In this document: piece by piece, positions 11,639-32,985 of the stretch
Layout: the number at the start of each line of letters is the position of its first letter
How positions within the stretch are numbered: position 1 is the first letter of the stretch
Source: a virus
Taxonomy: Duplodnaviria > Heunggongvirae > Uroviricota > Caudoviricetes
DNA length: 47,331 nucleotides
IMG/VR virus record: IMGVR_UViG_2778261458_000002
Direction: 5' to 3' (one strand)
Program-made: the position numbers and the translations under genes
Notes under the pieces: model-generated
The model's database searches: none
Told to the model about the DNA's origin: nothing
Seen by the model: only the letters and a program-made list of their open reading frames with translations

Positions 11639-11653
11639 CCAGAACGAATGATA

Positions 11654-13155: not shown

Positions 13156-13791
13156 ATGGGGATGCTGGTGGCGTTTATTATTAGCCTGATTTTGTGTTTC
13201 TTCGTAGTTCGTGGCGCATATCGGAAACAATGTGCCTCGTCTTCTGGTAGTAGGTTCAAAGCTGTTTTAGTGAGTGGCTTTCTCGGGATTGCTACTTTTG
13301 TAGTTGTTAATACTCTTGCGGCTGTGACCTTGATCCCAGAAGACTCCAGCACTACGGCTACCACCGGAGCTGCTTTTGATGGTGTGACCGTAGATAAGTT
13401 TAAGCAGTTATATAATGATGACCTTGAAGGCATCGCTACATCAGGAAAAGCCACCTCCACTATAAGAATTAAGTCTGTTAAACAAGGTAACAACACCGTT
13501 GAATTTGCCATCAACTCATCTGTTAACGGTCGGGCTAGAGTTGATAAGGATGGAAAGATTTCTGAGTTATTATGGCGAGTATCCAAGCCTAACTCTGATT
13601 CCTTGCTTTCTATGGCCGTAGCAGTTGAAGTCTTGGATGCGTCAAGTGAAAGAGACACCGTGATTGCGCAGTTAGAGCAGATTGTTAAATCTGATATGCA
13701 GAAAGCTGAGTTCAAGACTAAGAGAGGCGAGTATTACGTTTCTCGTGACAAATCAGGGCATGTATCGCTACTGATTACACCGAAATATTAA
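13156..13791 (+). CDS. membrane-anchored or secreted protein, unknown function
   Basis: 211-aa ORF with N-terminal hydrophobic helix (LVAFIISLILCFFVV), AAGGAG RBS, own terminator; isolated between non-coding stretches. Confidence 0.5.
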   Translation: MGMLVAFIISLILCFFVVRGAYRKQCASSSGSRFKAVLVSGFLGIATFVVVNTLAAVTLIPEDSSTTATTGAAFDGVTVDKFKQLYNDDLEGIATSGKATSTIRIKSVKQGNNTVEFAINSSVNGRARVDKDGKISELLWRVSKPNSDSLLSMAVAVEVLDASSERDTVIAQLEQIVKSDMQKAEFKTKRGEYYVSRDKSGHVSLLITPKY

Positions 13792-13802
13792 GAATTGAAG
13801 AA

Positions 13803-13826
13803 GCGCCCAAATCGGGCGCTTTGTTT
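13803..13826. terminator. intrinsic terminator shared by convergent genes
   Basis: GCGCCC-AAATC-GGGCGC hairpin followed by TTTGTTTT. Confidence 0.6.
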
Positions 13827-14995
13827 TATGGTTTTGCACCTGCGGCCAGTTTATCCGCAGATATTTTTATCAGTTCCTGTAGTGTCCTGGCTGGCAGGTT
13901 TGCATCCAGTACGCTGAGTATGCTGTTGTGATCAGCTTGGTCGACTACTTTGCCTGTCGGTGGTAGTAGTTTGAGCTGAGGGTTCAGATTTTCGTCAAAG
14001 CTGATAAGTGCTCTGGCGTTTCTGAGCAGATCAAGAAGTAAGGCTGATATCACATTTTCCTGAGTCATTGCTGGCAGATTTAGCGCCGCTTTGGTTTTCC
14101 CTGTTGCCTTGTCAAACTCCTTTATTAGTTCCTTCCTGTAGTTCGGTTCCGTTAATAGCCGATTATGCTCTGTTGCCGCGCGGATAATCGTTTTTTCCTG
14201 GTACAGTCGTTTAGCCAGATCACGCTCGTACTGTGTTTTTAACACGCTGCTGATAGCGTTAAAGGCTTCAATGTAGGCCAGCTTGATATCTTTCACGCCT
14301 GGACCGTCGATACTCTCCATGAGCAAGGTAAATCCGTCTTTTGTCATGCGATAGATTGTTATTTCGCGGTCGCTTCCTTCCAGCGGTCGTTGTTCTTTAA
14401 AGAAGTGACGCGCCGCAGCCGTGCGAGGAATGCGTAACGCATCGATGGCCATAACGATGGAATTGTTTGTGGTGCTGAATGCCTGAGCAACATCGGCTGA
14501 GGTTGTGAGTGGCTCGTTGTTGCACACCTTAATGTAAAATATCGGTTTGGCGTTGAGCGTATCGACAACCTCACGAGCATTGCTTGGCGAGACGGTAACG
14601 GTCGCGGCCGTTTGTGCGTTCTGGTTGAAATAGCAGTCTTCCAGCCGTTCGAACACATCCCACGCTTGGTTAGTTTCAAGCATTTTGGCGTGACGTGCAG
14701 CCCCGCGTTCTGTCCAGAGGATGAGGGAGCGAACTTTCGGGGGAATTTGTAACCCTCTTAAAGATGGTTCGTTAACTACTCTCACAGGAACTCTTAAAGA
14801 GTTTTTGTTCTTCAACTCTCGTAACTCTTTACCTTCTATCCTAAAAAAGTGTTTACCTTCTATAAAACGTTCCTTGTTTCTATTGAAATTGTTTGTCAGA
14901 CGTTGGCGCTCGGTTCCATACAATTGCGCCAGTAGTTCAGTAGTGATAACGGGGATCTGGTTATGCAGGATAGGCTGTAGGGTGTTAACGGTCAT
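13826..14995 (-). CDS. phage antirepressor-like protein (ORF6N/KilAC-type domains)
   Basis: 389-aa ORF; N-terminal ITTELLAQLYGTERQRLTNNFNRNKERF resembles antirepressor N-domains; translationally coupled to a small upstream ORF. Confidence 0.55.
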   Translation of the reverse strand: MTVNTLQPILHNQIPVITTELLAQLYGTERQRLTNNFNRNKERFIEGKHFFRIEGKELRELKNKNSLRVPVRVVNEPSLRGLQIPPKVRSLILWTERGAARHAKMLETNQAWDVFERLEDCYFNQNAQTAATVTVSPSNAREVVDTLNAKPIFYIKVCNNEPLTTSADVAQAFSTTNNSIVMAIDALRIPRTAAARHFFKEQRPLEGSDREITIYRMTKDGFTLLMESIDGPGVKDIKLAYIEAFNAISSVLKTQYERDLAKRLYQEKTIIRAATEHNRLLTEPNYRKELIKEFDKATGKTKAALNLPAMTQENVISALLLDLLRNARALISFDENLNPQLKLLPPTGKVVDQADHNSILSVLDANLPARTLQELIKISADKLAAGAKP

Positions 14996-15183
14996 TTTGC
15001 ACCTCCCATCACTACTTTGGTTACGAGGGAGATTTTTGCGTCAGAAACAGTGTTATCGTTGCTGGCGATGCGCATAGCTTCGCGCTCGATGATTTCAGCC
15101 AGGCGGAATTTATCGGCGTATGAGGCTTTCTTGAGAAGGATCTTTACGAGGTTGACGTAATAGTCATGGGGTAAGTTTGTCAT
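14992..15183 (-). CDS. small protein in the position of P1 icd, upstream of ant
   Basis: 63-aa ORF whose stop overlaps the ant start (ATGA); assignment by position only. Confidence 0.35.
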   Translation of the reverse strand: MTNLPHDYYVNLVKILLKKASYADKFRLAEIIEREAMRIASNDNTVSDAKISLVTKVVMGGAK

Positions 15184-15189
15184 GGTGAT

Positions 15190-15540
15190 AGTTCCCTTAA
15201 AGGTTAAGGATACTCACCACCGTCTGGTTCCAATCATTGGGTGGTGAGACGTACAGGGTTGGAACTACCGGTCACCATGGAATCCGGCGAGTCTTACGAC
15301 TCCCCCGCACGCCCCACCATAATTTGGGTGTAGCAGTGCTTTACGCATAAAAAACCGCTAACGCGGTATGCGCCATGATGATTATCGGGGTTCCAATCCC
15401 GACCGTAGATTTTGCTACGGCTCGGAAAGTGTCCACCAATGGCGCATTCATGTCAATACGGCGAGATTTTAACAGAGACAACCACATAGCGTGGGTTTGA
15501 AAAACGGAATTTTCTGTTCATTAAGCGCATGATTTGACCA
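15190..15540 (-). ncRNA. structured leader / candidate c4-like antisense RNA of the ant operon
   Basis: 350-nt untranslated region with repeated GGTTCCAAYC segments (15227, 15386) and a complementary TTGGAAC segment (15259), plus a CTCACCACC...GGTGGTGAG stem; boundaries unknown. Confidence 0.3.
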
Positions 15541-16296: not shown

Positions 16297-16733
16297 TGAG
16301 TGAAGAAACAAAAAAACCGCCCTATTGAGGACGGTTCTTTCGTGCTGATCGGATTCGCGGTCCTTTCAGCATTACGTTGTTGTATAAACAACCACGCAAG
16401 CACAAGCAGCAAGTTGATTTTACCCAAAAGGTAATAATAGTCCACTATTATGCTTCAAAAAATTGTGGTTCTTGTTGTGTCTGCAAACTCACAGATTGTG
16501 GGTAGGTTACTGATTTTGTGAAAATAAACTGGTTTTTTCGTTTAATTTATTTCCTATTACTAATCTTAAAATAATCGTAAAATACCTGTGGACCTTCCCG
16601 CCGATTCGCACCCGGGCACCGACTTTAGGGGAGGATTCTCCGTTGCCGTACATGCAAGCACAAGCAGCCGTGCTTGCTCTCGCGTTGTTTTCGTCGGTGG
16701 GGATGCCGTGAAACGGCCTGTAAGGGCCATACA

Positions 16734-16856
16734 ATGAAAAAATACTGTATGTGTATTTTTATCGTTGTTACTGGGGCTTTGTTTACGCCACATGGGGAGG
16801 GTTGGAAGATTACTGATAACGCTCTGAATGTGACGATAAACATTAGCAGCAAGTAG
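16734..16856 (+). CDS. small hydrophobic peptide (40 aa), speculative
   Basis: MKKYCMCIFIVVTGALFTPHG... preceded by a long hairpin-rich leader and followed by a strong terminator; no Hok signature. Confidence 0.25.
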   Translation: MKKYCMCIFIVVTGALFTPHGEGWKITDNALNVTINISSK

Positions 16857-16862
16857 CGATTA

Positions 16863-16884
16863 GGCCCCTTCGGGGGCCTTTTTT
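16863..16884 (+). terminator. intrinsic terminator
   Basis: GGCCCC-TTCG-GGGGCC hairpin followed by TTTTTT. Confidence 0.7.
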
Positions 16885-17106: not shown

Positions 17107-17355
17107 TTACTTCTGGTTGTATTGAGCCTTGAGTAACTCAAAAGATTTTGTCAGCACTTCTTTCAATGACATATCCATTGAGCTGGCGAACGTTTTGTAC
17201 TCGCGTTTAAATTCAGGGTCGACGTTAAACGCCATTTGTGCCCCACCTGATTTGGTTCTGGTTGGCGTTTCAGTCGGGTCGAAAACCTGCGGTTGTTCGA
17301 TCGATGGCGGTACGCCTTTGCTGTTCTTCTTTGGTGGTTTTGATGGTCCGGCCAT
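17107..17355 (-). CDS. ParG-like ribbon-helix-helix partition/centromere-binding protein
   Basis: 82-aa ORF directly downstream of ParA gene; basic Pro-rich N-tail and C-terminal RHH-like segment (MAFNVDPEFKREYKTFA). Confidence 0.55.
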   Translation of the reverse strand: MAGPSKPPKKNSKGVPPSIEQPQVFDPTETPTRTKSGGAQMAFNVDPEFKREYKTFASSMDMSLKEVLTKSFELLKAQYNQK

Positions 17356-17398
17356 GTGTATCCCCTCTTATATAAATCTATAAAACTATAATTATATA

Positions 17399-18067
17399 TT
17401 ACGCGGCAGTAGTCAGAGCCTCAAGCTGGTTGATAATCCCCTGAATAACGTCGTCTGCCTTTTTGCGTGGCGCAACGTATGAGCACTCAATGAGGCTTAA
17501 GCCCTTATCCTGAGCTTTGCTCAGAGCTGGCTTGTGGGGAATGTACTTATCGACAACAAAGTATGGCGTATTAGCCAGGTACTCTTGGGCTTCGATGTAG
17601 TCAGCTTCGTTTTCAGCCGCGCCGGAAAACACCATGCAAATTTTCTTGATTGGTACACCCTTTTTAACGATGCCGTGAGCCGTGTTAACGGTGGTTTCCA
17701 GGTCATCGGTAGAGAATCTGGTTGGCAAAATAACCATATCCAGAAATTCAGAGAGCTTCGGTACTGATTCAGATGCGTAGGCACCGCCATCGACGATAAC
17801 CAGGTCGTATACTTCTGATTCGATGATTTTCTGGACTTGTGATGGTGTGCCGCACGGCTGCGCCGCGATTGCTGGTTCGATATTGTTGGCCATTCTGCGT
17901 TGTACCCAACGCGTTACCGTTCCGTTAAGCACATCCATATCGATCAGGCATACATTCCAGCCAGCCTTTGCATAAGCAACTGCTAAAGCACGGGCAATTG
18001 TTGATTTGGTTACGCCGCCTTTTCCGTTGAAAATACCTACAGAGATAGTCATTTGTCGAGACTCCAT
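17399..18067 (-). CDS. parA: ParA-family partition ATPase (small type Ib, ParF-like)
   Basis: 222-aa ORF with deviant Walker A GKGGVTKST near N-terminus and Walker B-like LVIVDGG. Confidence 0.8.
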   Translation of the reverse strand: MESRQMTISVGIFNGKGGVTKSTIARALAVAYAKAGWNVCLIDMDVLNGTVTRWVQRRMANNIEPAIAAQPCGTPSQVQKIIESEVYDLVIVDGGAYASESVPKLSEFLDMVILPTRFSTDDLETTVNTAHGIVKKGVPIKKICMVFSGAAENEADYIEAQEYLANTPYFVVDKYIPHKPALSKAQDKGLSLIECSYVAPRKKADDVIQGIINQLEALTTAA

Positions 18068-18075
18068 GTGTTTGG

Positions 18076-18170
18076 TTATATAATTCTATAAATCTATATT
18101 TATAGAACGAGGTAAGCATAACCAACTTTTTGGCGGATGAAAAGCGTTTTATATAATTATATAAATCTAT
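18076..18170. repeat. two 23-bp direct repeats upstream of parA (centromere/operator candidate)
   Basis: TTATATAATTCTATAAATCTATA (18076-18098) and TTATATAATTATATAAATCTATA (18148-18170); a related box lies between parA and parG (17368-17400). Confidence 0.45.
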
Positions 18171-18202
18171 AATCATATAAGCGGGCGTTAGCCCGCTTGC
18201 AG

Positions 18203-18669: not shown

Positions 18670-19326
18670 TCATAACCAGTTGACAACACTAACTACGCGG
18701 CCAAGAACTTTATAACGCTTAAATTCCTCGTTATTCAGATGCTTAGTGTTCATTTCAGCATCCCTTTCGGTTGACAGCATAACAGCATTGTCACCCGGTA
18801 TGACTCTACAGTGCCTCAAAACAACCAGGCCATTTCTGTCTTCAAGGGCATAGATCCCCTCATGAATCTCTGTATCGTCTGTATCAATCAGGACTTGGGA
18901 GCCTGGGGATATTGTTGGTGACATTAACTCATCGTTGCTCTGGAGAACTGACAGAGACGATGGGTTGATGTTCTTGCTTCGTAGAATCTCCTGTTCTATC
19001 GCCAGCACTGGCTTTTCTCCGGCGTGCGATGCTATGTCATTTTTTATGGCTACAAGCCCAGGAATAACAGGAGCGTTAGTATTCTGGGGTGGGAACGGGT
19101 TATCTGTTAAGCACGCGATATAAGGCGCTGATGCTTTCAGGGCGTGCGCAATTTTCTTGATGGCAGGTATAGATGGTTGTCTTAATCCGGCCTCATAGTT
19201 CTGCAAGGTGCTTAAGCCTATTCCAGTGACTTGCTGGAGATCTCCGGCAGTCATGCCGGATTGTTTCCGTAGAGTCTGAATGCGCAGACCTATTTCTTTC
19301 TTGATGTTCTCGTCGTTGCTTTTCAT
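18670..19326 (-). CDS. CI/LexA-like repressor (N-terminal HTH, C-terminal S24 peptidase-like domain)
   Basis: 218-aa ORF; HTH IGLRIQTLRKQSGMTAGDLQQVTGIGLSTLQNYEAG; C-terminal domain with Ser (ELMSP) and Lys (KVLGRVV) as in autocleaving repressors. Confidence 0.75.
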   Translation of the reverse strand: MKSNDENIKKEIGLRIQTLRKQSGMTAGDLQQVTGIGLSTLQNYEAGLRQPSIPAIKKIAHALKASAPYIACLTDNPFPPQNTNAPVIPGLVAIKNDIASHAGEKPVLAIEQEILRSKNINPSSLSVLQSNDELMSPTISPGSQVLIDTDDTEIHEGIYALEDRNGLVVLRHCRVIPGDNAVMLSTERDAEMNTKHLNNEEFKRYKVLGRVVSVVNWL

Positions 19327-19364
19327 GTCTCATCAATCGTGAATGGTGGGTTATTTATACATTA

Positions 19365-19501
19365 CCACATTTAGTGGTTTTCACATGGTAAGACGAGAGG
19401 TGGACCACAAATAGAAGGTTATTTTTTGTTTCGCCCATTGAAAAGCTCACGATATGTGGTTTTAATACCACATATCGTGGTTTTAATACCACATATCGTG
19501 G
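19365..19501. promoter_or_regulatory. operator array between divergent repressor and early genes
   Basis: CCACATATCGTGG at 19468-19480 and 19489-19501, inverted variant at 19447-19459 (21-bp spacing), variant CCACATTTAGTGG at 19365-19377. Confidence 0.55.
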
Positions 19502-19521
19502 TTTTAATTGGAGTTCGTTAA

Positions 19522-20016
19522 ATGACCTTTCAGGAGTGGGTTGACGAAAATGGAGGCCAAATTGGTGTTGCCAGAAAGTTTGGCTTTACGTCATCACTGA
19601 TTGGTGCCTGGTATCGCTTCGAGAGATTCCCTCGTGCGGATAACCTGACGCTGCTGGTGGCGTATTCGGAAGGCCGGATTAACGTCCAGCAATGGGCGGC
19701 AGATTTTGCCGAACGTCAGCGCCAGCGTAGCGATGGCACATCGGTTCGGCAGAACAAGATCAAAGGGAATCTCCCTGTTAACTGCTTATCAAGGTTGAAA
19801 GCGGTTTTCTCTGAGCTGGGGATGCCTGCGGAGCGTTGCAATCTACGCGGTCCGCGATTCATTGCTCGCTGGAAACACTCACACGTAACCGTTTCAGAGG
19901 TTCGTGATGCGATTACCGTGCTGGAGCTTAAGAATAAAGATTCCAGCGATATCGAGCTGATTCATAAGGAGATTAGCAACGCCCGGCGTTCAGCACTTGG
20001 GAGGCTTGAGGAATGA
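19522..20016 (+). CDS. early regulatory protein, possibly Cro-like
   Basis: 164-aa ORF divergent from repressor, GGAG RBS; N-terminal GQIGVARKFGFTSSLIGAW HTH-like segment. Confidence 0.35.
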   Translation: MTFQEWVDENGGQIGVARKFGFTSSLIGAWYRFERFPRADNLTLLVAYSEGRINVQQWAADFAERQRQRSDGTSVRQNKIKGNLPVNCLSRLKAVFSELGMPAERCNLRGPRFIARWKHSHVTVSEVRDAITVLELKNKDSSDIELIHKEISNARRSALGRLEE

Positions 20017-20528
20017 TGATTCTGGCCTTCTTTGGTGATAATCACCAGATTCAATCGCAGGTGGTGCACTACCTTGATCAAACGATTAAAGGATTTGTTA
20101 TCGATCATATTGATAACGATAGTAAACGTCTATCTGTAGAGCAGAAAATTGGACGTGTGCAGCGACTGGTTGCCAGCCGTAACAGACGTGACACCGTAAC
20201 AGTCGTCACGGGGATAACGGAGGTCATGGAGTACCAGATGTTGCTGCATCGCGGAGCTGTTTTCTGCGTTCTTCCTGGCATTCTGCCAGCAATTCTTGCT
20301 CGTGGTTTTGTCCCTATTGATGAGTCGTTCTTATATGTAACCCCAAGCCGTTCCCTTCTGGATACGGAGGCGAAGCGTCGCATTTATATGATGCCGGACG
20401 AGGCATTTTCTGAATGTTACCGCCGTGAAATGAGGTTGGGTAAACGAGAAGTGTCTGTTGTTCGTGATGGCAGGTTTTTAAGAAGCCGCACGGTGAAAAG
20501 CACCAGAAATGACGGGGGGCATCAATGA
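20013..20528 (+). CDS. hypothetical protein
   Basis: 171-aa ORF, ATGA overlap with upstream gene. Confidence 0.4.
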   Translation: MMILAFFGDNHQIQSQVVHYLDQTIKGFVIDHIDNDSKRLSVEQKIGRVQRLVASRNRRDTVTVVTGITEVMEYQMLLHRGAVFCVLPGILPAILARGFVPIDESFLYVTPSRSLLDTEAKRRIYMMPDEAFSECYRREMRLGKREVSVVRDGRFLRSRTVKSTRNDGGHQ

Positions 20529-20758
20529 GTAGTTATGTTCGCGGTGCTGCGATGCATTGCCAGAATCCCCAATTCTGGCGCTTTCTGACCAGTAAAACAG
20601 GGAAGAACGTTTCAAACAGTTCTGAGGCCTCTGTGATTCTGCGTGAGTTTTGCGGGATCTCATCCCGTAAAGAGCTGGCAAAGAACTACGCGGCCAGAAG
20701 CATGTATGTCCAGTTAATCAACGAGTTCAACCTCTTTATCAATGGTAAGGGGCGCTGA
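20525..20758 (+). CDS. hypothetical protein
   Basis: 77-aa ORF, coupled to neighbours. Confidence 0.3.
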   Translation: MSSYVRGAAMHCQNPQFWRFLTSKTGKNVSNSSEASVILREFCGISSRKELAKNYAARSMYVQLINEFNLFINGKGR

Positions 20759-21162
20759 TGAACGGACGTACACCAACGAAGAAAGAGAAACTTTATATAC
20801 AAGCGGTGCTCACTCATGTGGGTTGCATAGCTTGCATTATTGATGGCCGTGAAATTGAGAATCCAGAGCTGTGGACGGAGCTACATCACGATCCTGATTA
20901 CGGCAGCGTTGATGAGAATTGCCACTTCCATAGCTTTGGGTTGTGCGCACCACATCATCGCGGTGTTGTGCCTGGTGGTGGGCGCGTGCCTCCGCATATT
21001 GCCGTTCGTCACCCTCCCCTGAGTAATTGTGCTCGCTTTGTTGAGCGTTATGGCACCGATGAATTTTTGTGTGCGCAGACGTGGGAGCTGTTGCCGCAGT
21101 CAGTTAAAGACGAAATTGGGTTTGATCTTAGTCTTGGTGAAGTACCAGGGGATACCAAATGA
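20758..21162 (+). CDS. Cys/His-rich protein, possibly HNH/Ref-like nuclease
   Basis: 134-aa ORF with GCIACIIDGR ... ELHHDPDYG ... CHFHSFGLCAPHH metal-binding pattern. Confidence 0.3.
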   Translation: MNGRTPTKKEKLYIQAVLTHVGCIACIIDGREIENPELWTELHHDPDYGSVDENCHFHSFGLCAPHHRGVVPGGGRVPPHIAVRHPPLSNCARFVERYGTDEFLCAQTWELLPQSVKDEIGFDLSLGEVPGDTK

Positions 21163-21491
21163 GATATACCGGCTTTCGCAAACCAGCGACAAGGAAAAGC
21201 AAATACGGCAATAAAAAAACGGTTGTCGATGATATCGCTTTTGATAGCAAAAAAGAGGCTGATTACTACTGCGAACTGAAGCTACTGAGAAAAGCTGGCC
21301 GCGTTGTGACGTTTCTTATGCAGGTGCCTTTTCATCTGCCTGGTGGTGTCGTTTATAAACTTGATTTCATGGTGTTTTATGACGATGGGACGATTGATTG
21401 TGTCGACACTAAAGGTGTGCGAACAGACGTCTACATCATGAAGAAAAAGCAGGTAGAGGCACTTTATCCCGTCACGATACGGGAGATCTGA
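21159..21491 (+). CDS. phage protein, DUF1064-like
   Basis: 110-aa ORF with SKYGNKKTVVDDIAFDSKKEADYYCELKLLRKAG, a pattern I associate with DUF1064 phage proteins. Confidence 0.45.
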   Translation: MRYTGFRKPATRKSKYGNKKTVVDDIAFDSKKEADYYCELKLLRKAGRVVTFLMQVPFHLPGGVVYKLDFMVFYDDGTIDCVDTKGVRTDVYIMKKKQVEALYPVTIREI

Positions 21492-21494
21492 ACA

Positions 21495-21872
21495 GTGAGA
21501 CGCGATCTGGATAGCTTGTTTGAGCTATGGGCGCTGTGGGTGCGCAATGGCTGCAACGCCCGTAGCGGTTTCGCGTCGATGTTAGAAATGATGATGGTTA
21601 CGCGCTGCCAGTTTACCGGAGGGGGCGGCGCACCAAATGACTCACTGGAAACCAGTATAGAGGGAGCGGTGACGGCCCTCACGGTAGTTGATGAGACTGC
21701 GGCGCTGGTTATCCGAATTGAATACGGGGCGTGGGAGATTCGGGGCCTCGACATAAATGCACCGCATATTGATAAAGCCCACGCCCTTTCTCTTAGTCTC
21801 AGACAGTATCGCCGGAAGCTGGCAAAAGCCAGGGCGTATGTTGTCGACTATTTGAAAAAGCGAAGAGAGTAA
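21495..21872 (+). CDS. candidate late-gene antiterminator (Q-like)
   Basis: 125-aa ORF (GTG start) ending ~50 bp before conserved promoter module B and upstream of the lysis cassette; weak resemblance to small Q proteins. Confidence 0.3.
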   Translation: MRRDLDSLFELWALWVRNGCNARSGFASMLEMMMVTRCQFTGGGGAPNDSLETSIEGAVTALTVVDETAALVIRIEYGAWEIRGLDINAPHIDKAHALSLSLRQYRRKLAKARAYVVDYLKKRRE

Positions 21873-21924
21873 AAGTGTCATTTTGAGCTGTTTTGATGGT
21901 GTGTAGACATCGGGAATATCGAAA

Positions 21925-22041
21925 ATCTATAAATATATAATTATAGATTTATATAAAAAGTGCTTTACAGGTGGGAAAAAATTTCCTAAGGTTATACCCG
22001 AAACCGAGCGATACCCGCCCTGGTTAAACCGGAGAAATCTG
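21925..22041 (+). promoter_or_regulatory. conserved promoter + 5' leader module, copy B
   Basis: Near-identical to 11683-11801 and 27617-27730; ends at ATG 22042. Confidence 0.5.
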
Positions 22042-23109
22042 ATGAATAAACAAGTAATTATTTCTGACTGGATCAACAACCCTAACAGCCTGTTAAGCAC
22101 TGATACTGGCTACCTATTACGCCATGTTAATGGTCGTATGGTCAAAAGCGATGAGCACGAAACCTTTTTCTTTGTTGAAGACGATGGGCGCATCTATGAG
22201 GATGGTTACTCTTATGAAGCCCAAACTGGTTGTATCCCTGCGGAGCTGGTGGACGTAACAGAAGATCTGCGCAAAGCATGGCTTGAACAGCAGCAGCGCG
22301 GAGATGATTACGTAAACACCTATCAGGAACGCCAGAACGCGCGTCTTGCCCGATATATTGCTCGTGCAGAAAAAGCCAGAAAAGAAGGTGCGGTAGCGCA
22401 TAAGCGAGCGCATGACCTGTTGGATGTGATCCCGTTAGGCCAGCCGATTTTAGTTGACCATTATAGCGCGAAAGGCCATCGCCGCCGTTTGTCTAAAGCT
22501 GATGCGTTATTCAGAAAAGCGTTTGTTGAATGCGAAAGTAAAGCATCACACTACGAGAGCAAAGCCGCAGGTGTTGGTCGTAATGGAATTTCGTCTGATG
22601 ATCCTGATGCGCTATTTAAGTTGCTTCGTAAGCTGCAAGGCTGCATGAAGTCACACGTCAAAATGAAGGCCGCAAATAAGGCCATTCGCAAATACAAAAA
22701 AGACCAATTACAGCAGCTTTCTGCATTAATCGATCTCAGGTTTACAGAAAGCGAAGCCAAAGAGTTACTGGCCGGAGATTTTTGTGGGCGCATCGGATTC
22801 CCTTCATACGCACTGAGCAACAATAACGCCGAGATCAAACGACTACAGAGCCGTATTAAGGAGCTTGAATCGGTCAAGTCTGTAACAGGAGCACAGCGCG
22901 AAGAATACGACGACTTTTCTATGGAGATAGATCCAGAGGATAACCGCATCCTGTTTTATTTCCCTGGCAAACCAGAGGCAAACATTCGTTCGCTGCTTAA
23001 ATCACGCGCCTTTAAGTGGAGTCCAACCCGTAATGCATGGGTTCGCAAGATTACTCCAAACGCCCTGGCTGATGCCCGATATCTAAAAGAATCGCTATTG
23101 AAAGCCTGA
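22042..23109 (+). CDS. hypothetical protein (DUF3560-like)
   Basis: 355-aa ORF starting at end of module B; HYSAKGHRRRLSKADALF and FKWSPTRNAWVRK segments. Confidence 0.45.
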   Translation: MNKQVIISDWINNPNSLLSTDTGYLLRHVNGRMVKSDEHETFFFVEDDGRIYEDGYSYEAQTGCIPAELVDVTEDLRKAWLEQQQRGDDYVNTYQERQNARLARYIARAEKARKEGAVAHKRAHDLLDVIPLGQPILVDHYSAKGHRRRLSKADALFRKAFVECESKASHYESKAAGVGRNGISSDDPDALFKLLRKLQGCMKSHVKMKAANKAIRKYKKDQLQQLSALIDLRFTESEAKELLAGDFCGRIGFPSYALSNNNAEIKRLQSRIKELESVKSVTGAQREEYDDFSMEIDPEDNRILFYFPGKPEANIRSLLKSRAFKWSPTRNAWVRKITPNALADARYLKESLLKA

Positions 23110-23120
23110 CAGTAAGCCTA

Positions 23121-23140
23121 CGGCGGGACGTCTCCCGCCG
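23121..23140 (+). terminator. terminator-like hairpin
   Basis: CGGCGGGA-CGTC-TCCCGCCG hairpin after the 355-aa gene; followed by AT-rich box rather than a clean T-run. Confidence 0.35.
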
Positions 23141-23186
23141 TATATAGAATTATATATTTATATAAATGTATAAGGACGCCTCGACA

Positions 23187-23468
23187 ATGAAACGCAAAAT
23201 TATTAACCCCCAAGATGTGATTAATTTCCTGACCGATCACCCATGTTCAAAAGTGGACGTAATCGCGGAGCACATTGGTGTGTCGCAGAACTCTATGCGT
23301 TGCAGACTGAGAAGCATGGTTGCCGAAGGACAGATAACAACCAGGAAAATAAATGGTTGCCTGTACTACTCCGCTAAACCGGAATTGCCATTTGGCATGA
23401 ATCCTAACTCCATGTTGTTTAACACCTTATTAGCCAAAGTTAAGCCGTTGAGAGAGGCTGTGGCATGA
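23187..23468 (+). CDS. winged-helix DNA-binding protein (FaeA-like)
   Basis: 93 aa from ATG 23187 (AAGGA RBS); VDVIAEHIGVSQNSMRCRLRSMVAEGQI helix-turn-helix. Confidence 0.45.
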   Translation: MKRKIINPQDVINFLTDHPCSKVDVIAEHIGVSQNSMRCRLRSMVAEGQITTRKINGCLYYSAKPELPFGMNPNSMLFNTLLAKVKPLREAVA

Positions 23469-23830
23469 GCATCAAAACACATACCGGAATAATCATTACC
23501 AATGATGGTGAGAAAAAAGTGAAGTTGCGCGAGACGCCGACAACCTGGTGTGTTGGTCCGAAAGAAACATATCGCAAGGAAGATGGCCGTCGTTGTGGGG
23601 CACCACTTTCCCGCCGTCGCCTCCTTTTGAGCACGATAAAACCTATCGGGCAGGTTGAGCAACCAACGACTCCGGTAACGAAGATTTCAGACAAGAGTCT
23701 GGCAAACCTGATCGCCGATGCGGACAAGGTGCTGGAGCGGAACACCCCAGTAGCCGATGAGGAATGGTGGCAGGATTTCCGAGCCGCAATGCTAGAGCTT
23801 CAGGAACGTCGTCGGGAGGAGTTGAAGTGA
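23465..23830 (+). CDS. hypothetical protein
   Basis: 121-aa ORF, ATGA-coupled. Confidence 0.4.
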   Translation: MSIKTHTGIIITNDGEKKVKLRETPTTWCVGPKETYRKEDGRRCGAPLSRRRLLLSTIKPIGQVEQPTTPVTKISDKSLANLIADADKVLERNTPVADEEWWQDFRAAMLELQERRREELK

Positions 23831-24018
23831 GCAAGAAAAATGCCGGATGGGTCAGGCCAATGAAGGCGAATAAACATCATTATTTTAATGAAGGTGAAGT
23901 AACCAGCATTTGCGGCCGTTGGATGTATTTTGGTGATTACCGTGAGCCAGACACTTTTGAGAGTCCTGATGATTGCGTGTCTTGTCGCCGGAAATTGAAC
24001 AAGGTGGCTTCTAAATGA
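23827..24018 (+). CDS. small Cys-rich protein (zinc-ribbon-like)
   Basis: ICGRW...DDCVSCRR pattern; start uncertain (GTG 23827 or ATG 23860). Confidence 0.3.
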   Translation: MSKKNAGWVRPMKANKHHYFNEGEVTSICGRWMYFGDYREPDTFESPDDCVSCRRKLNKVASK

Positions 24019-24404
24019 AAGAACGTGGTGTTGTTTTTAATGACGATATGGTTAGGTCCATCCTCGAAGGAAGGAAGACGCAGACTCGCCGACCTGTAAA
24101 AAATGTCAGGGCCGATAACTGCCTGGTTATCCGTAAACCGACAAAGAAACGCAATGGTGTCTATACCCACGTTATGGATGCACCTGAACATGGTTTATGC
24201 CCGTTCGGTAACGTTGGTGATCGCATATGGGTCCGTGAGGCGTGGGCGATATTAGGCAATGAGGATGGTTGCAGTGTGGACTGGAACGACAACCTTTGTC
24301 GTGGCGATGAGAAGAACGCAGCAAGGATTTATCGGGCCAGTTGTGAGCAAAAGCCTGGTGATTACGGTTTGTGGTCGATATCCCAGCCAGTGGTTGAGAG
24401 TTAG
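24015..24404 (+). CDS. ASCH-like domain protein
   Basis: 129-aa ORF; N-terminal FNDDMVRSILEGRKTQTRRP resembles ASCH/PUA-like proteins. Confidence 0.4.
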   Translation: MKERGVVFNDDMVRSILEGRKTQTRRPVKNVRADNCLVIRKPTKKRNGVYTHVMDAPEHGLCPFGNVGDRIWVREAWAILGNEDGCSVDWNDNLCRGDEKNAARIYRASCEQKPGDYGLWSISQPVVES

Positions 24405-24848
24405 CAATCGCCGTGTGGTGTTGTTCTCATTTTCTGGAATTGCCAGAGAGGGAGTAAAAGAGAAGCGCAGCGCGGCGCAAAACCGCTGGAAAAACCACTT
24501 ATATAAGCTGTAGTGAGAAACCATGCGCTTACGAGCAGTATTCAGATATTCAGAGCGGGTAATGAAGCACATACAACCGAAAACATGGCAGAAACTGGAC
24601 TCTATGGGAGTTAAGTTGGAGAAGATTACTCAACTTAAGCAGTGGCATATCGGCGAATATTATGGAAGTCCTGGTCGGGATGTTCGGTTGGTAAAAAGTT
24701 GAATATTGCTTTTTTATTGATCGATTAACCACAATATGAAGTTTTTTTTATGGGAAAACCTTGTTTTAGGTGGTAACTGGGTGTAGTGTTTCATTTAACG
24801 TAGTAAAACTGCGTTAAGCGATTACCGCGTAATTTGTTGCTTTATGAA

Positions 24849-24879
24849 GCCCTGCCTTTTTCGGCGGGGCTTTTTTTTT
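24849..24879 (+). terminator. intrinsic terminator upstream of lysis cassette
   Basis: GCCCTGCC / GGCGGGGC stem (one G-U pair) followed by nine T. Confidence 0.65.
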
Positions 24880-24892
24880 AACGAGGATTTCA

Positions 24893-25288
24893 ATGTCAGC
24901 AGAACCAATTTCCGGTACGGCCGTTGCTGCTGGTGGCCTGATGGGTGCCAGCGTTTTTGGTATTGCAACTGGTATTGATTACGGCGTTGTATTCGGGGCA
25001 TTTGCTGGCGCTGTTTTCTATGTTGCTACAGCGGTGAATATTAGCCGTCTCAAGCTGATTGGCTATTTCTTTACATCGTTCATTGTTGGAGTGATTGGAG
25101 CGCCGTTAGTTGGCTCATTTCTTGCCAAATGGACCAGCTACAACGATCGTCCTCTTGATGCACTTGGTGCGGTTATTGTGGCTGCATTGACAATTAAAAT
25201 CCTCACGTTCGTAAACAGCCAGGATCTCGGTAGCATCTTTGGAATGCTTTCCCGCTTACGTGGAGGGGGGGCAAATGGTAAGCAGTGA
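24893..25288 (+). CDS. membrane protein, putative holin
   Basis: 131-aa ORF with several hydrophobic helices, first gene of lysis cluster. Confidence 0.45.
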   Translation: MSAEPISGTAVAAGGLMGASVFGIATGIDYGVVFGAFAGAVFYVATAVNISRLKLIGYFFTSFIVGVIGAPLVGSFLAKWTSYNDRPLDALGAVIVAALTIKILTFVNSQDLGSIFGMLSRLRGGGANGKQ

Positions 25289-25571
25289 CCCGTCAGCACT
25301 GATTAATGCGGTGCTTTGCACAGTAATAGTAATGGCGCTGATGCTTTATCGACGGAAAGACTCCAGGCATCGTCCATTTGTTTCCTTTCTGGCTTATATC
25401 TACGTCATTGTATACGCCAATGTTCCCTTCCGTTATGTGTTCGGTCTTTATCAAGAATCCCACTGGTTGGTGGTTATTGGAAATCTGATTATCTGCATCG
25501 TTGTTCTGTATTTCAGGGGCAATCTGGCGAGGATAGTTGACTCATTAGGGTTTAATCATGACCAAAGATGA
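25275..25571 (+). CDS. small membrane protein (holin/antiholin candidate)
   Basis: 98 aa from ATG 25275 (G-rich RBS); three predicted TM helices. Confidence 0.4.
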   Translation: MVSSDPSALINAVLCTVIVMALMLYRRKDSRHRPFVSFLAYIYVIVYANVPFRYVFGLYQESHWLVVIGNLIICIVVLYFRGNLARIVDSLGFNHDQR

Positions 25572-26100
25572 GATTTTTAACAGCGTTCTTGGAAAAGAGG
25601 GTGGCTATGTGGAGCACCCTGACGACAAGGGAGGCCCAACAAAGTGGGGCATTACTCAGAACACTGCCCGTGCTCATGGATACCGTGGCGATATGCGCGA
25701 TTTAACCCGCGAACAGGCACTGGAAATCCTTGAGGCTGATTACTGGTACGGACCACGCTTTGATCAGGTGGCCGCATTATCCTCTGATATTGCCGCAGAG
25801 CTGTGTGACACGGGGGTGAACATGGGGCCAACAGTGGCGTCAAAAATGCTTCAACGCTGGCTGAATGTGTTCAACCTGCGCGGGAAGCTGTATCCCGATT
25901 TGGATGCAGACGGACGAATCGGTCCACGTACCATTAATGCGCTACGTGCTTATCTTGGGAATCGGGGAAAAGATGGCGAACGGGTGATGCTGACGTCGCT
26001 GAACTGTACGCAGGGCGAACGCTATCTGGAGCTGGCGGAGAAGCGCGAGGCTAATGAGTCGTTTGTCTACGGCTGGATGAAAGAGCGAGTGGTGGTATGA
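25558..26100 (+). CDS. endolysin, GH108-like lysozyme with peptidoglycan-binding domain
   Basis: 180-aa ORF; N-terminal VLGKEGGYVEHPDDKGGPTKWGIT (EGGY motif) and C-terminal PG-binding-like region. Confidence 0.7.
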   Translation: MTKDEIFNSVLGKEGGYVEHPDDKGGPTKWGITQNTARAHGYRGDMRDLTREQALEILEADYWYGPRFDQVAALSSDIAAELCDTGVNMGPTVASKMLQRWLNVFNLRGKLYPDLDADGRIGPRTINALRAYLGNRGKDGERVMLTSLNCTQGERYLELAEKREANESFVYGWMKERVVV

Positions 26101-26375
26101 CTGGTTTGAAAGCCGTTTTGTCATTTATCGGCACCGTTATATTGGTTGCATTCGGTGCGTTTGGTTTTGGTCGAATGAAGGGGCGAGAAAAGGCCGAAGA
26201 TGAAGCTGAAAAGCAGCGCATTAATGAGAATGCAGCCGCCGTAAAAGCCACTGCGGAGCGGCGTATAGAAGTGACAAAAGAGGTGGGGAATGTACAGCAG
26301 AGTGTTAACCATATGGCTGATGACGATGTTGATCGCGAGCTGCGGGAGTCGTGGAAGCGTCCCGGTGGTGGTTGA
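26097..26375 (+). CDS. i-spanin (Rz-like)
   Basis: 92-aa ORF, N-terminal TM helix then charged coiled-coil; overlaps endolysin stop. Confidence 0.55.
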   Translation: MTGLKAVLSFIGTVILVAFGAFGFGRMKGREKAEDEAEKQRINENAAAVKATAERRIEVTKEVGNVQQSVNHMADDDVDRELRESWKRPGGG

Positions 26376-26499
26376 TACCGCCTGTGATTGGGTAAAGCCC
26401 ATCTACCTGACTGATCACGATATCGATGTTATGGACCGCCAGACAAAGAAAGATATTCTGGCTCATAACAGGGCATGGGAAATCAACTGCCCAAAGTAA
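26290..26499 (+). CDS. o-spanin (Rz1-like lipoprotein) overlapping Rz in another frame
   Basis: 69-aa ORF with lipobox-like LIASC starting inside the Rz gene. Confidence 0.45.
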   Translation: MYSRVLTIWLMTMLIASCGSRGSVPVVVDTACDWVKPIYLTDHDIDVMDRQTKKDILAHNRAWEINCPK

Positions 26500-26668
26500 T
26501 ATATATTTCTATAATTATATAAATATATAGTTACAACATTCTATGCGCTTTTCTCATGAGCGCACGCATCAACCATGTTTGTCTGATATGCCGCCGCGCC
26601 CAAAAATCCTGAATTTATTGGCTGGGATTTTCGTGCGCGGCGCCACACCAGACAAACAAATCAAATAT

Positions 26669-26744
26669 GGCCCCTTAGCTCAGTGGTTAGAGCAGGCGAC
26701 TCATAATCGCACGGTCATCGGTTCAAATCCGGTAGGGGCCACCA
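26669..26744 (+). tRNA. tRNA with CAU anticodon, ileX-like (tRNA-Ile2 lysidine type) or tRNA-Met
   Basis: 76 nt, GGCCCCTTAGCTCAGTGGTTAGAGCAGGCGACTCATAATCGC... with acceptor stem GGCCCCT/AGGGGCC and 3' CCA; 5' half matches my recollection of E. coli ileX. Confidence 0.85.
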
Positions 26745-27030
26745 ATTCACTCTCACACATAAAGATAAGCGCGGTGGAGTTACTTCTTCGTGCTCATCTT
26801 TATGCGTGCCTGGTGCGCATTTCGGAGGCAGGGCCTGTTATCCGCAAAGGGGTAAAAGCTGGAGCGGCACGGAACTGTAGCCGTGTGACCAAAACAGCGT
26901 TGTCGGGCGATATCCGGCACACAACAGGCAAGGGCATTAATCAGTCTGGTTAGTGCCCTTTTCGTTGTGTTTGCTGTAGAGCTGGCCAGCGTTATGACTG
27001 CCGGAGATAAGCGCCGGAGGCACAACTAAC

Positions 27031-27618
27031 ATGGAGGCAATTGCATTGTTTAATCTGATTTATGCAGATCCCCCCTGGGAATACAAAGACAAGTGTAAGG
27101 ATGGGAATCGTGGCGCTGGTTTTAAGTATCCAACGATGAAAGCTGAGGAGATTGCTCGTATTCCTGTCTGGCAGCTTGCTAATCCTGAATCGTGTTTGTT
27201 GGCCATGTGGTGGGTTCCGACTCAGCCAGAAGAAGCGTTGCTGGTGGTGAAAGCATGGGGATTCAGGCTTATGACCATGAAGGGCTTCACATGGAACAAA
27301 TGTGGTAGCCGACAGCCAGATAAGCTGGTGATGGGGATGGGGCATATGACTCGTGCGAACAGTGAAGATTGCTTGTTTGCGGTAAAAGGCAAACTGCCGA
27401 CCCGCCTTGATGCGGGAATCATTCAGTCGTTTACATCGCCTCGTCTGGAACATTCACGGAAGCCTGATGTGGTTCGTGACAAGCTGGTAAGACTGTTAGG
27501 TGATGTTCCTCGTATTGAGCTGTTTGCTCGCGGTGATTTACCTGATGGCTGGCATGGCTGGGGCAACCAGTGCAATGGAGGTATCCAATTGCATGATGCT
27601 CTCTGGCAAGTGGTATAG
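27031..27618 (+). CDS. DNA N6-adenine methyltransferase, MT-A70 family (orphan)
   Basis: 195-aa ORF with IYADPPWEY catalytic motif; no restriction endonuclease gene adjacent. Confidence 0.75.
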   Translation: MEAIALFNLIYADPPWEYKDKCKDGNRGAGFKYPTMKAEEIARIPVWQLANPESCLLAMWWVPTQPEEALLVVKAWGFRLMTMKGFTWNKCGSRQPDKLVMGMGHMTRANSEDCLFAVKGKLPTRLDAGIIQSFTSPRLEHSRKPDVVRDKLVRLLGDVPRIELFARGDLPDGWHGWGNQCNGGIQLHDALWQVV

Positions 27619-27730
27619 AATTATATAATTATAGATTTATATAAAAAGTACTTTACAGGTGAGAAAAAATTTCCTAAGGTTGTACCCGAAACCGAGCGAT
27701 ACCCGCCCTGGTTAAACCGGAGATAACCCG
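27617..27730 (+). promoter_or_regulatory. conserved promoter + 5' leader module, copy C
   Basis: Near-identical to copies A and B; ends at ATG 27731. Confidence 0.5.
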
Positions 27731-28000
27731 ATGAAAGTACAAGACCGTGAAGTAGTAAAAAACCTCCTGCAATACCTGACCTCAAAAAATCTGACGGGCA
27801 GCGTTGAGTTCCGTGAAGCGTTAAAACATTTCAACGTCACTACGGTTTATCGTTGGGAAAACCAACATTCTGAAAGACCGTATGTGGTGGATGTTTTTGC
27901 GCCTGATATTGAGTGCGGTTTTGAGCGCCATTCATTCAAAAAGAAACATTCCGCTGATGTTTTTTGTGAGGTTGTATGTGCGGCAGGAGATGATGAGTGA
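27731..28000 (+). CDS. hypothetical protein
   Basis: 89-aa ORF starting at end of module C. Confidence 0.45.
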   Translation: MKVQDREVVKNLLQYLTSKNLTGSVEFREALKHFNVTTVYRWENQHSERPYVVDVFAPDIECGFERHSFKKKHSADVFCEVVCAAGDDE

Positions 28001-28197
28001 TGCGTATTTCCTTCAAACGTGCGACTGAGCAGCAACGCAAAGAGTTCCTGGCTGATGATGTTGCGGCCGTTTATGACCTCATGAAAGAGGTTGTGGAATC
28101 AGGAAACTACACGGCGGCAAAGATGCTTAAACTGCAATTCTTGCTGGGCGACCTGAAATACAAATCCGAAGTTGTCGCCGGACGACGCGAGCATTAA
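27997..28197 (+). CDS. hypothetical protein
   Basis: 66-aa ORF, ATGA-coupled to upstream gene; terminator-like hairpin follows at ~28219-28245. Confidence 0.35.
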   Translation: MMRISFKRATEQQRKEFLADDVAAVYDLMKEVVESGNYTAAKMLKLQFLLGDLKYKSEVVAGRREH

Positions 28198-28271
28198 ACC
28201 GTAACGATAACGAACAACGAGCCTCGGCAATTGCCGGGGCTTTTTTACATCCAGACAAAGGAGAACATGGG

Positions 28272-28910: not shown

Positions 28911-28996
28911 TTGGTCGATTAAAATGAGGCATAAATAAAACAATGTGTCTTTTTTAAAGGTTGTGTAACATTTGCGTTCCATTTAAGGAGGGTAAA

Positions 28997-29404
28997 ATGC
29001 GCACCGATCTAGATTATCTAAAAAAGATGCTGACTGTGTTTTTGGATTCAGAAAGCACGTTCATAACAGTAAATCAACTAAGAGATGCGGGGTTTGATAT
29101 AGCCTCAGAAAAGGGCATGTTTCATTATATGCAATTGATTGAGCAAGGTTTTATCAGCAATATGAAGATGGAAACGCGTGATCCTCTGCGTCTTGGCTAT
29201 GTTAATTCCTTTGCAGGAATGAGGACTGTTGATGTAGATATTAGATTGACTACAGAGGGACAGGATTTTGCCTGTGCACTAGAGAGCAAAGATGTTTTCG
29301 CTAGACTAAAAGAAATTAGCAATGAGCCATTGGCTGTTATGAAGGATGTTGGTGTAGAACTTCTCAAGTCATTGGCAAAGAAGAAGTTTGGTTTATCTGA
29401 TTAG
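28997..29404 (+). CDS. hypothetical protein
   Basis: 135 aa from ATG 28997 (AAGGAGG RBS 6 nt upstream); followed by strong terminator. Confidence 0.45.
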   Translation: MRTDLDYLKKMLTVFLDSESTFITVNQLRDAGFDIASEKGMFHYMQLIEQGFISNMKMETRDPLRLGYVNSFAGMRTVDVDIRLTTEGQDFACALESKDVFARLKEISNEPLAVMKDVGVELLKSLAKKKFGLSD

Positions 29405-29434
29405 TGCAGATACCTGTTTGCTATTTATTTATAA

Positions 29435-29462
29435 AACCACCTGCGGGTGGTTTTGTTTTTTT
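29435..29462 (+). terminator. intrinsic terminator
   Basis: AACCACC-TGCG-GGTGGTT hairpin followed by TTTTGTTTTTTT. Confidence 0.7.
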
Positions 29463-29696
29463 AGCATTACAGCAGCTCTTGTGCTTACCAGGGGCTGCGA
29501 TAATGCGCAAACCAAAGCTGCCTCATTAACTCCAGCTCGCTGTAGAGTTAATGCTGGTTGCTTTTTTATTACTGGAAGGTGGGCGACCGCCGTCAGTTGC
29601 GACCTGACGACAGTCATTCATACCCACAGGGTGCCGTGGATACAAACCGAGGCCCACTTGCTTGCACAAGCGAGGGGATTTTAGCGGATAAACGGC

Positions 29697-32429: not shown

Positions 32430-32985
32430 TCATCGTGTGGTTGATGGTGTTGTTATGCAGAGTGTATTCACTGTGTTCTGTAGTGTCGCTCGCTGGCTGT
32501 CTGTGGGGGAGCACGAGCATCGTTTCATCGTCCGGCAGAATTGGGTCCTTCTGGCCAAAAGCGTTGGATGCGGGTCATTCGAACCCCGATGTTCGGCTAG
32601 CTAAACGTGAAAAAAGTTAGGTTAAAAGTTGCGGTAAAAGAAATTTACTCATCTCATTGAAAAATATCGGGAAAACGTGATTTTTTGCTGTATTTGTGCT
32701 GGTAAAAAGAAAGTAGAAAATTTTCTTTTAGATCATCAAGATACGCGCAGATCTTTAACCAATGTGATGTTGTTCTGATAAAAATCGTTATAAATCATGC
32801 AAATACATCCAATCTTTTAACCAAAACACCATCTCAAGATCCTTTTTACTTATAAAAACTTAATAAAATCAGATATTATGCTGGTTTGTGTGATTTTTTA
32901 TGAGTAAAAAGATCGTCATTTTTCTCTTTTAGTATCAATAAGTTAAACAGTTTTCTTTAACCTGTTGTGTTATGGCGGTTAAAAA

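Follow-up and report, generated by a model that had tools for sequence, protein, structure and literature searches.

The stretch of DNA analysed here is the IMG/VR virus record IMGVR_UViG_2778261458_000002 (47,331 nucleotides; hereafter the window, or W in comparisons), and the gene in question lies at positions 21495-21872 and encodes a protein resembling phage Q antiterminators. All plausible genes from position 19522 to the window end are on the + strand, in agreement with an earlier reading made from the letters alone (the sequence-only reading), which had described the late genes as co-directional. They begin with an early operon that faces a CI-like repressor gene, contains no strong terminator between 19522 and 21491 and ends with the Q-like gene; accessory genes, a lysis cassette and the structural operon follow (Table 1). 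The order repressor, early operon with nuclease and DUF1064 genes, Q-like gene, then accessory and lysis genes was found in 13 of 13 lineages. In Pseudomonas phage PARCL1pr and in one Vibrio phage the Q-like homologue likewise sits in an early operon opposite a repressor, and that of the Pseudomonas phage lies upstream of the lysis and terminase genes. Sequence and synteny suggest that the repressor, which is probably self-cleaving, holds down the rightward early operon and with it the Q-like gene. Our analysis leans, at slightly better than an even chance, towards Q-type processive antitermination of the late genes by a divergent relative of the Q protein of phage 21 (Q21), with accessory modules placed along the late transcription path.

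The Q-like gene is a genuine conserved open reading frame (ORF) with 31 homologues. Its product belongs to phrog_5285, a PHROG without assigned function, and is labelled 'hypothetical' in every source consulted; a single-sequence search of the PDB gave no match. A profile search of 1.8 billion representatives gathered 130 clusters (50% identity), and 113 representatives of these clusters were combined into a family profile. Members of the family are known from enterobacterial phage-plasmids, 87 Vibrio phages and one Pseudomonas phage. When compared with the PDB sequences, the family profile matched Q21 alone (E 3.5e-5; next best 0.2). Alignment by hhalign against 21 sequences of the Q21 family gave a probability of 95.2% (E 2.9e-8) over 78 columns, pairing residues 2-78 of the Q-like protein with residues 12-89 of Q21, with a LELW-W motif in common. 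In a Foldseek search with the predicted fold, Q21 chains made up the top 6 and 10 of the 14 best matches (best probability 0.98). The Q21 family model PF06530 was weakly touched by 10 of the 113 representatives (best E 1e-4). An assignment that the sequence-only reading had called weak is strengthened by these matches, and the protein appears to be a remote, statistically supported homologue of Q21, shorter and with a plainer C-terminal helix-turn-helix (HTH).

A further relationship was found with the NCBIfam model for PA0613 (NF051483), which is matched by 58 of the 113 representatives (best E 6.7e-9) and, over its full length, by the window protein (E 6.6e-4), none of the family scores coming near the equivalog cut-off of 100 bits. 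PA0613 lies directly upstream of the holin gene PA0614 in the R/F-pyocin locus of P. aeruginosa and has been called an adjacent regulatory gene (PMC11871291). A literature search found no paper on PA0613 function, and since none is known the link yields no mechanism. Given the family matches, PA0613 may itself be a Q21-type factor.

Potential terminators were examined by folding each hairpin against 200 shuffles and by a terminator scan (relatives are numbered L002-L027 and their lineages labelled T, G, Gp, C and A). None of the 200 shuffles folded as well at any of the five hairpin sites of Table 1. The sequence-only reading had listed four terminator hairpins: those at 24846, 28219 and 29431 are canonical, whereas the one at 23121 has no U tract, is missing from the scan list and is not a canonical terminator. 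The hairpin at 26930-26960 had been missed. Between 15 and 34 kb there is a modest excess of terminator-like sites (28 against 18.3 ± 4.8 expected); the structural region at 34-47 kb has 10 against 10.5 ± 2.9 expected, none of them strong. The pre-holin terminator keeps its position in L015, L016 and L027 with altered stem and loop sequences and has analogues in most other lineages examined, where an array of short repeats (see below) often abuts it. It ends 10 nucleotides (nt) before the holin start in the window, and its counterparts in L003, L017, L019 and L022 lie 12-25 nt before theirs. A gap of this size has no room for a sigma-70 promoter, and transcription of the holin gene therefore has to run through the terminator. 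To this extent, and in the lack of strong terminators within the structural operon, the antitermination pattern proposed earlier stood; the supposed lack of promoters did not, two of the four hairpins being the 3' ends of modules with promoter cassettes of their own (21925-23140 and 27613-28242). The 28219 terminator is retained in L016 and L015, and in L025 its stem is 1 bp shorter, one base being gone from each arm; the 23119-23142 hairpin has a retained stem and a variable loop in L015 and L016. The 29431 terminator follows a variable gene (28961-29404); plasmid L002, 99% identical elsewhere, lacks this terminator and has that gene replaced.

A candidate for the site at which late transcription starts was found ahead of the pre-holin terminator. 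A 57-nt block is identical in W, L015, L016 and L027 (a Salmonella plasmid), while its flanks diverge and the holin genes downstream are unrelated. Its core, TTGTnn-N15-17-TAnnGT/C-N6-8-TAACGTRG-loop-YTGCGTT, is present as a single copy per genome in the four lineages T, G, Gp and C, whose Q-like proteins are 50-65% identical. From the candidate start to the terminator is about 50 nt, and an RNA terminated there would be about 85 nt long. Together, block and terminator resemble the layout of pR', pause element and tR' in lambda. A switch placed immediately after the Q-like gene is not supported, as the candidate most like pR', at 24761-24801, is 2.9 kb downstream of that gene. Upstream of the block is a motif resembling a repressor-operator half-site of the same lineage, and L016 differs by A/G at both places. 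In lineages G, Gp and C a 12-bp palindrome, GTGACGCGTCAC, absent from the window lineage, was seen about 130 nt upstream of the candidate promoter (L003 ~12080; L017 ~15310; two copies at ~20180-20220 in L024). Downstream of the candidate promoter, L003 has about 1.7 kb (12216-13978; equivalent in L019/L020) that is GC-rich, hairpin-rich and without called genes; no tRNA or Rfam match was found in it.

Table 1. Features of the window discussed in the text, in order of position; roles are predicted.
Feature	Position	Strand	Details
Terminator and cassette A	terminator 11653-11675; cassette 11684-11801	+	predicted to drive 11802-12182 and an HTH gene
Type Ib partition module	17107-18180	-	assigned from Pfam and arrays
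ParA partner	17107-17355	-	82 amino acids; disordered tail and C-terminal two-helix domain
Array between the two partition genes	17368-17399
ParA	17399-18052	-	217 amino acids; CbiA/ParA/MipZ match; small Walker-type, without N-terminal HTH
parA promoter arrays	18076-18107; 18149-18180
CI-like repressor	18670-19326	-	HTH_3 and Peptidase_S24 (Pfam)
Candidate operators ACCACA-N3-TGTGGT	intergenic, 19327-19521		between repressor and early operon; repeat search
Early operon before Q-like gene	19522-21491	+	ORFs of 164, 171 and 77 amino acids, Ref-type nuclease, DUF1064
Ref-type nuclease	20758-21162	+
DUF1064 protein	21159-21491	+
Q-like gene	21495-21872	+	125 amino acids; GTG start; last gene of the early operon, apparently repressor-controlled
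Cassette B	21925-22041	+	array 21925-21956; -35 TTTACA 21964-21969; -10 TAAGGT 21987-21992
DUF3560 accessory gene	22042-23109	+	Pfam; predicted to be driven by cassette B
GC-rich hairpin	23119-23142	+	10-bp stem, then AUAUAGAAUU; -18.9 kcal/mol, z -3.4
AT-rich array of 8-bp repeats	23142-23173		followed by leader GGACGCCTCGACAATG of the 23187 gene
Winged-HTH/MarR-like phrog_1687 protein	23187-23468	+
Small accessory ORFs	23465-23830; 23827-24018; 24015-24404; 24523-24702	+
Invariant block, candidate late promoter	24759-24815	+	57 nt; single copy in window
Block, promoter hexamers	24761-24766; 24784-24789	+	-35 TTGTTT, 17-nt spacer, -10 TAGTGT; predicted start ~24796
Block, -10-like TAACGT	24796-24801	+	TAnnnT at +1 to +6
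Block, 5' hairpin	24797-24815	+	7 bp
Pre-holin intrinsic terminator	24846-24873; T tract to 24882	+	11 bp + T9; -22.3 kcal/mol, z -4.9
Lysis cassette	24893-26375	+	holin (Phage_holin_8), second holin, GH108 endolysin, Rz-like gene
AT-rich array	26499-26538	+
tRNA-Met	26669-26744	+
Hairpin after tRNA-Met	26930-26960	+	partial T tract; -26.7 kcal/mol, z -6.5
Cassette C	27613-27730	+	97% identical to the copy at 11686; predicted to drive 27731-28000 and 27997-28197
Intrinsic terminator	28219-28242; T tract to 28248	+	10 bp + T6; -18.8 kcal/mol, z -4.6
Intrinsic terminator	29431-29456; T tract to 29463	+	11 bp + T7; -19.8 kcal/mol, z -5.1

The sequence-only reading had also stated that the lysis and structural genes lack obvious strong promoters. 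A consensus scan of the + strand from 18.5 to 33.3 kb bore this out, in that no site with at least 9 of 12 matches was found; it does not hold for what conservation reveals, namely the promoter-like block described above and three copies of a 118-nt cassette, 90-100% identical to one another, at 11684, 21925 and 27613. Each cassette is built of four AT-rich 8-bp repeats, TTTACA, a 17-nt spacer, TAAGGT, a leader of about 43 nt, a Shine-Dalgarno sequence and ATG. Relatives with 50-65% Q identity have the same architecture in other sequence and with better hexamers (e.g. TTGCAT-17-TATTAT), usually with a terminator ahead of the cassette, and the hexamers stay 17 nt apart across lineages. The spacer of cassette B contains the palindrome GGAAA-AAA-TTTCC, and in all three cassettes, as in those of relatives, a 17-bp palindrome of the form TAGGnnn-AAA-nnnCCTA overlaps the -10 hexamer (e.g. 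window 21972-21989; L017 ~1180; L024 ~4940); with its constant outer TAGG/CCTA and lineage-variable inner bases it looks like the operator of a dimeric regulator.

Comparison of genomes shows the DUF3560 unit (21925-23142) and the unit at 27613-28248 to be insulated accessory modules: each has its own promoter and a 3' hairpin or terminator, and relatives differ in whether they carry them. These modules lie within the proposed late path and end at the 23121 hairpin and the 28219 terminator, so several of the punctuating terminators close insulated modules. The gene preceding the 29431 terminator has no cassette of its own. The DUF3560 module is missing from the lineage G relatives L003, L017, L019 and L025, in which the Q-like stop codon directly precedes the array and leader found at 23142 in the window, and no cassette lies between the Q-like gene and holin. 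The cassette promoters were considered as primary loading sites for the Q-like protein and rejected, because their initial transcribed region has no conserved TAnnnT and because of this lack of a cassette before the holin in lineage G. Between the 29431 terminator and a ParB-like gene lies a conserved non-coding leader of 240 nt (29457-29696). It contains a hairpin (29524-29553) both arms of which differ from L016, with a T run 8 nt away and further hairpins, and may act as a cis-regulatory RNA or as a further pause site or terminator.

The AT-rich repeats of the cassettes belong to a wider set of eight arrays with an 8-bp period (at 11684, 17368, 18076, 18149, 21925, 23142, 26499 and 27613), which hold units in both orientations. 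Two of them surround the promoter of parA, an arrangement seen in 12 lineages with a lineage-specific repeat sequence; five of the eight are in the lytic half of the genome, near accessory promoters and the tRNA gene and, in relatives, near the pre-holin terminator. Repeat arrays of this architecture are typical of the operators and centromeres of type Ib partition systems such as TP228 parH (PMC3130281). Since the same arrays stand at the cassettes and at the parA promoter, they are probably recognised by the 82-residue ParA partner; the strand predicted before its two helices differs between lineages with different arrays. The fact that Q21 binds two 8-bp direct repeats makes it tempting to regard the arrays as Q-binding elements. 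This is disfavoured, as arrays lie on both sides of the parA promoter, which has to be active in the prophage, and have mixed orientations; moreover, lineages G and C have almost the same Q-like recognition helix despite their different arrays, an observation on few lineages and thus only suggestive. One array lies 130 nt upstream of tRNA-Met, so this tRNA may share array-dependent control with the accessory cassettes; the tRNA gene is retained in L016, and none was found by ARAGORN in L015. In several lineages parA and the gene that comes next after the Q-like gene or the DUF3560 module begin with a common short leader, GGAG/AGGA-N2-3-CTCGACAA(A)TG, always with an array directly upstream (window 18040-18067 and 23173-23189; L003 6365-6388; L024 ~12760).

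From these elements we infer the following course of events. After induction, the Q-like protein would load onto RNA polymerase at a promoter-proximal site, for which 24759-24815 is the best candidate; TAACGT at the first transcribed bases would have the geometry of a sigma-dependent pause element at a weak sigma-70 promoter (TTGTTT-17-TAGTGT). Polymerase lacking the factor would stop about 85 nt on, at the 24846-24882 terminator, which abuts the holin ribosome-binding site. Polymerase carrying it would pass this terminator, then the 26930 hairpin, then the 28219 and 29431 terminators, and so enter the terminator-free structural operon, as polymerase modified by lambda Q does from pR'.

Several observations weigh against this course of events, which was deduced from sequence, homology and conservation. 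On the side of the protein, the Pfam scan returned no family at E <= 0.01, the PF06530 matches of family members are probably under the curated cut-off, and the alignment with Q21 is limited to the N-terminal two thirds. The C-terminal HTH has the look of an ordinary sigma region 4, some members matching models of extracytoplasmic function (ECF) sigma factors, so the protein may instead act as an activator. On the side of the DNA, the candidate promoter agrees with the consensus at 6 of 12 positions in the window lineage and has a 15-nt spacer in lineage G, lineage A (L004, L021, L022) yielded no TAACGT, and no Q-binding element or direct-repeat subsites were recognised in the block. Its 5' hairpin shows one-sided changes and no compensatory one, and is uninformative. 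The block also gave a match to the small RNA GcvB (RF00022) of 33.5 bits, below the gathering cut-off of 42 (E 1.6e-4 in 8.6 kb; 6.7e-6 in 351 nt), and given this sub-threshold match cannot be separated from part of a small RNA. The cassette or array-embedded promoters could alone supply downstream transcription, and a ribbon-helix-helix fold of the ParA partner was not confirmed.

The main rival explanation, a serious one that we nevertheless judge unlikely, takes up the cassette and array-embedded promoters. The lysis and structural genes would be expressed as insulated modules from several separate promoters: cassettes B and C, promoters within or adjacent to the arrays, and possibly an extended -10 element, TGCGATAAT, at 29496-29504. 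These would be switched on by removal of repressors, such as an array-binding partition protein or CI when titrated or cleaved, while the terminators would only insulate modules and be leaky or bypassed. Three conserved cassettes with hexamers 17 nt apart across lineages fit such a scheme, as do the arrays placed directly ahead of several start codons with the common leader GGAGnCTCGACAA(A)TG; against it, there is no room for a promoter between the pre-holin terminator and the holin gene, so that lysis needs read-through, and lineage G does without a cassette between the Q-like gene and holin. For the structural genes, the 29431 terminator is dispensable in L002, which suits separate promoters, but the extended -10 element, when considered as a structural-gene promoter, proved not to be conserved in L016 and was rejected. 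The 125-residue protein would become a sigma-region-4-like activator of weak late promoters. A candidate late promoter that is weak by consensus, with operator-like motifs alongside, is indeed what one would see at an activator- or repressor-dependent promoter, and the C-terminal half of the protein, with the ECF matches of some members, would suit this role; sequence and profile homology, however, points to Q21 and to no known activator.

Two other explanations give the late leader region itself a different nature. That the block and terminator (from ~24719 or 24796 to 24882) are the gene of an Hfq-type small RNA, in which a 5' hairpin and a GU-rich seed would be joined by a single-stranded linker and the terminator would be that of the small RNA in place of a regulatory tR', seems to us quite improbable; it would in any case be compatible with antitermination, as with the 6S RNA of lambda. 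The segment 24796-24885 folds to -35.8 kcal/mol (z -5.0) in a typical small-RNA architecture, and the block sequence is invariant. The GcvB match covers the full length, but besides falling short of the Rfam gathering score it owes much of its value to the terminator and the GU-rich stretch and did not recur at the corresponding elements of L003, L017 and L024, and no convincing conserved promoter was seen upstream of 24719. An antiterminator made of RNA, which the sequence-only reading had offered as an alternative, is very improbable indeed. A put-like cis-acting RNA in the cassette or late leader would modify polymerase without a protein, and one may point to the near identity of the ~43-nt cassette leader in its three copies and to the 5' hairpin after the candidate late start. 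That cassette leader, however, has no stable fold (z -0.45), the late hairpin lacks compensatory changes and is a single one of 7 bp where put of HK022 has two stem-loops, no Rfam family scored above threshold in 21.4-30 kb, and a conserved Q21 homologue is present.

The genome in which these elements reside combines structural and plasmid genes. The annotated relative L002 has repA, parA and a toxin-antitoxin pair together with a complete myovirus structural set, with terminase, portal, capsid, sheath and tube genes alongside repA and parA; by this combination the window is a phage-plasmid, a circular element of about 48 kb from Enterobacteriaceae and a temperate myovirus kept as a plasmid. 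Some 50 non-mobilizable plasmids of 47-50 kb are 99% identical to the window region 21100-25300, mostly from Escherichia with single records from Klebsiella and Kluyvera, and Salmonella also hosts relatives. Yersinia phage vB_YpM_41 (49 kb, circular, without any annotation) is 98% identical to this region. A literature search found no paper on these phage-plasmids as a family. Elsewhere in the window, Rfam models identified on the minus strand (13826-15421) a P1-type immI module with isrK (15348-15421) and the C4 antisense RNA (15237-15324), accompanied by a 63-codon ORF and a gene for a 389-residue Rha/antirepressor-like protein. Relatives score for the c4 a1/b1 target element too, and L024 carries its copy of the module on the + strand, 1.2 kb ahead of the candidate late promoter. 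Pairing of C4 or isrK with the cassette or late leaders was considered and dismissed, as no significant duplexes were found. A full-length match to ryfA RNA (16588-16884, +; 141.8 bits) is followed by a terminator at 16862-16879, and ryfA is also present in L025. A probable tail-fibre gene contains tandem direct repeats of 132/168 nt and 300 nt (4894-5755; 68-99% identical). At 24199-24500 a patch matches P1 pmgT and non-coding DNA from Stx-converting phages at 91-97% identity, which suggests that accessory DNA was recently exchanged with unrelated coliphages. Just upstream of terminase, between a gene for a 239-residue protein and a ParB/Srx-like gene, a 560-nt AT-rich non-coding stretch (32430-32990) is a possible packaging site or further late regulatory region.

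If the Q-like protein does represent a branch of the Q21 type, the pyocin locus and many phage late operons would be under antitermination control by a factor that has so far had no name. The assignment provides a testable function for an unannotated family found in enterobacterial phage-plasmids, in phages of Vibrio and Pseudomonas and perhaps at the pyocin locus, and it locates the parts of a proposed lytic switch on common plasmids: the Q-like gene, the promoter-terminator unit at 24761-24882 and the repeat arrays. As the regulatory principle is a textbook one, the gain is in annotation and not in mechanism. A new mechanism would be at hand only if the dispersed partition-type arrays proved to regulate lytic genes; the ParA partner would then gate the accessory cassettes and the entrance to the lysis genes, and plasmid copy number and partition would be coupled to lytic expression. 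That both linked readings hold, phrog_5285 as a new Q21-type branch and gating of lytic genes by the ParA partner through the eight arrays, we regard as doubtful.

The closest known counterpart of the proposed switch is that of phage 21 (PF06530; PDB 6P18, 6P19, 6JNX), with whose Q the Q-like protein has remote sequence homology and a similar predicted fold. Q21 itself combines N-terminal helices with a DNA-binding domain resembling sigma region 4 and forms a torus on the RNA exit channel. In both cases the gene is the last of the early operon and precedes the lysis genes. A promoter-like element, its -10-like hexamer lying where the transcript is expected to begin, has a strong terminator within about 50 nt and the holin gene after that, and a long co-directional late operon lies downstream. 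Unlike Q21, the Q-like protein has 125 instead of 162 residues, is alignable over residues 2-78 only, misses the Pfam threshold and has an ordinary sigma-4-like HTH with no sign of the HT[loop]H insertion; and unlike in phage 21, the candidate promoter is 2.9 kb from the gene, weak by consensus and without a recognisable direct-repeat Q-binding element. The Q of lambda is of another protein family. The window shares with its pR'/6S RNA/tR' unit a short terminated transcript, here a predicted one, directly ahead of the lysis genes and a -10-like element at +1 to +6 (AACGAT in lambda, TAACGT here). As in Stx-type lambdoid phages, accessory genes with their own signals are found between Q and the lysis genes. 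In lambdoid phages, however, pR' directly follows Q and the cargo is downstream of pR', whereas in the window it comes before the candidate promoter, in the interval that separates this from the Q-like gene.

The partition module has counterparts in type Ib systems. In TP228 ParF/ParG/parH (PMC3130281) and in pSM19035 delta/omega the small centromere-binding protein doubles as a transcriptional regulator. These systems likewise have a small ParA with a partner of about 80 residues that has a disordered tail and a two-helix domain at its C terminus, and the 8-bp-period arrays, in both orientations, around the parA promoter and at other promoters are a further likeness; the window differs in that a ribbon-helix-helix fold is not demonstrated and in that five of its eight arrays are in the lytic half of a phage genome. 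The DUF3560 module and the 27613-28248 module, finally, recall the morons of HK97- and HK022-type phages, reportedly described by Juhala et al. in 2000 as units of promoter, gene and terminator, in having their own promoter, a 3' hairpin or terminator and variable presence. Unlike in morons, the promoters of these modules are copies of a single 118-nt cassette that has a repeat array upstream and a palindrome in its spacer, which argues for common regulation and not for independent acquisition.

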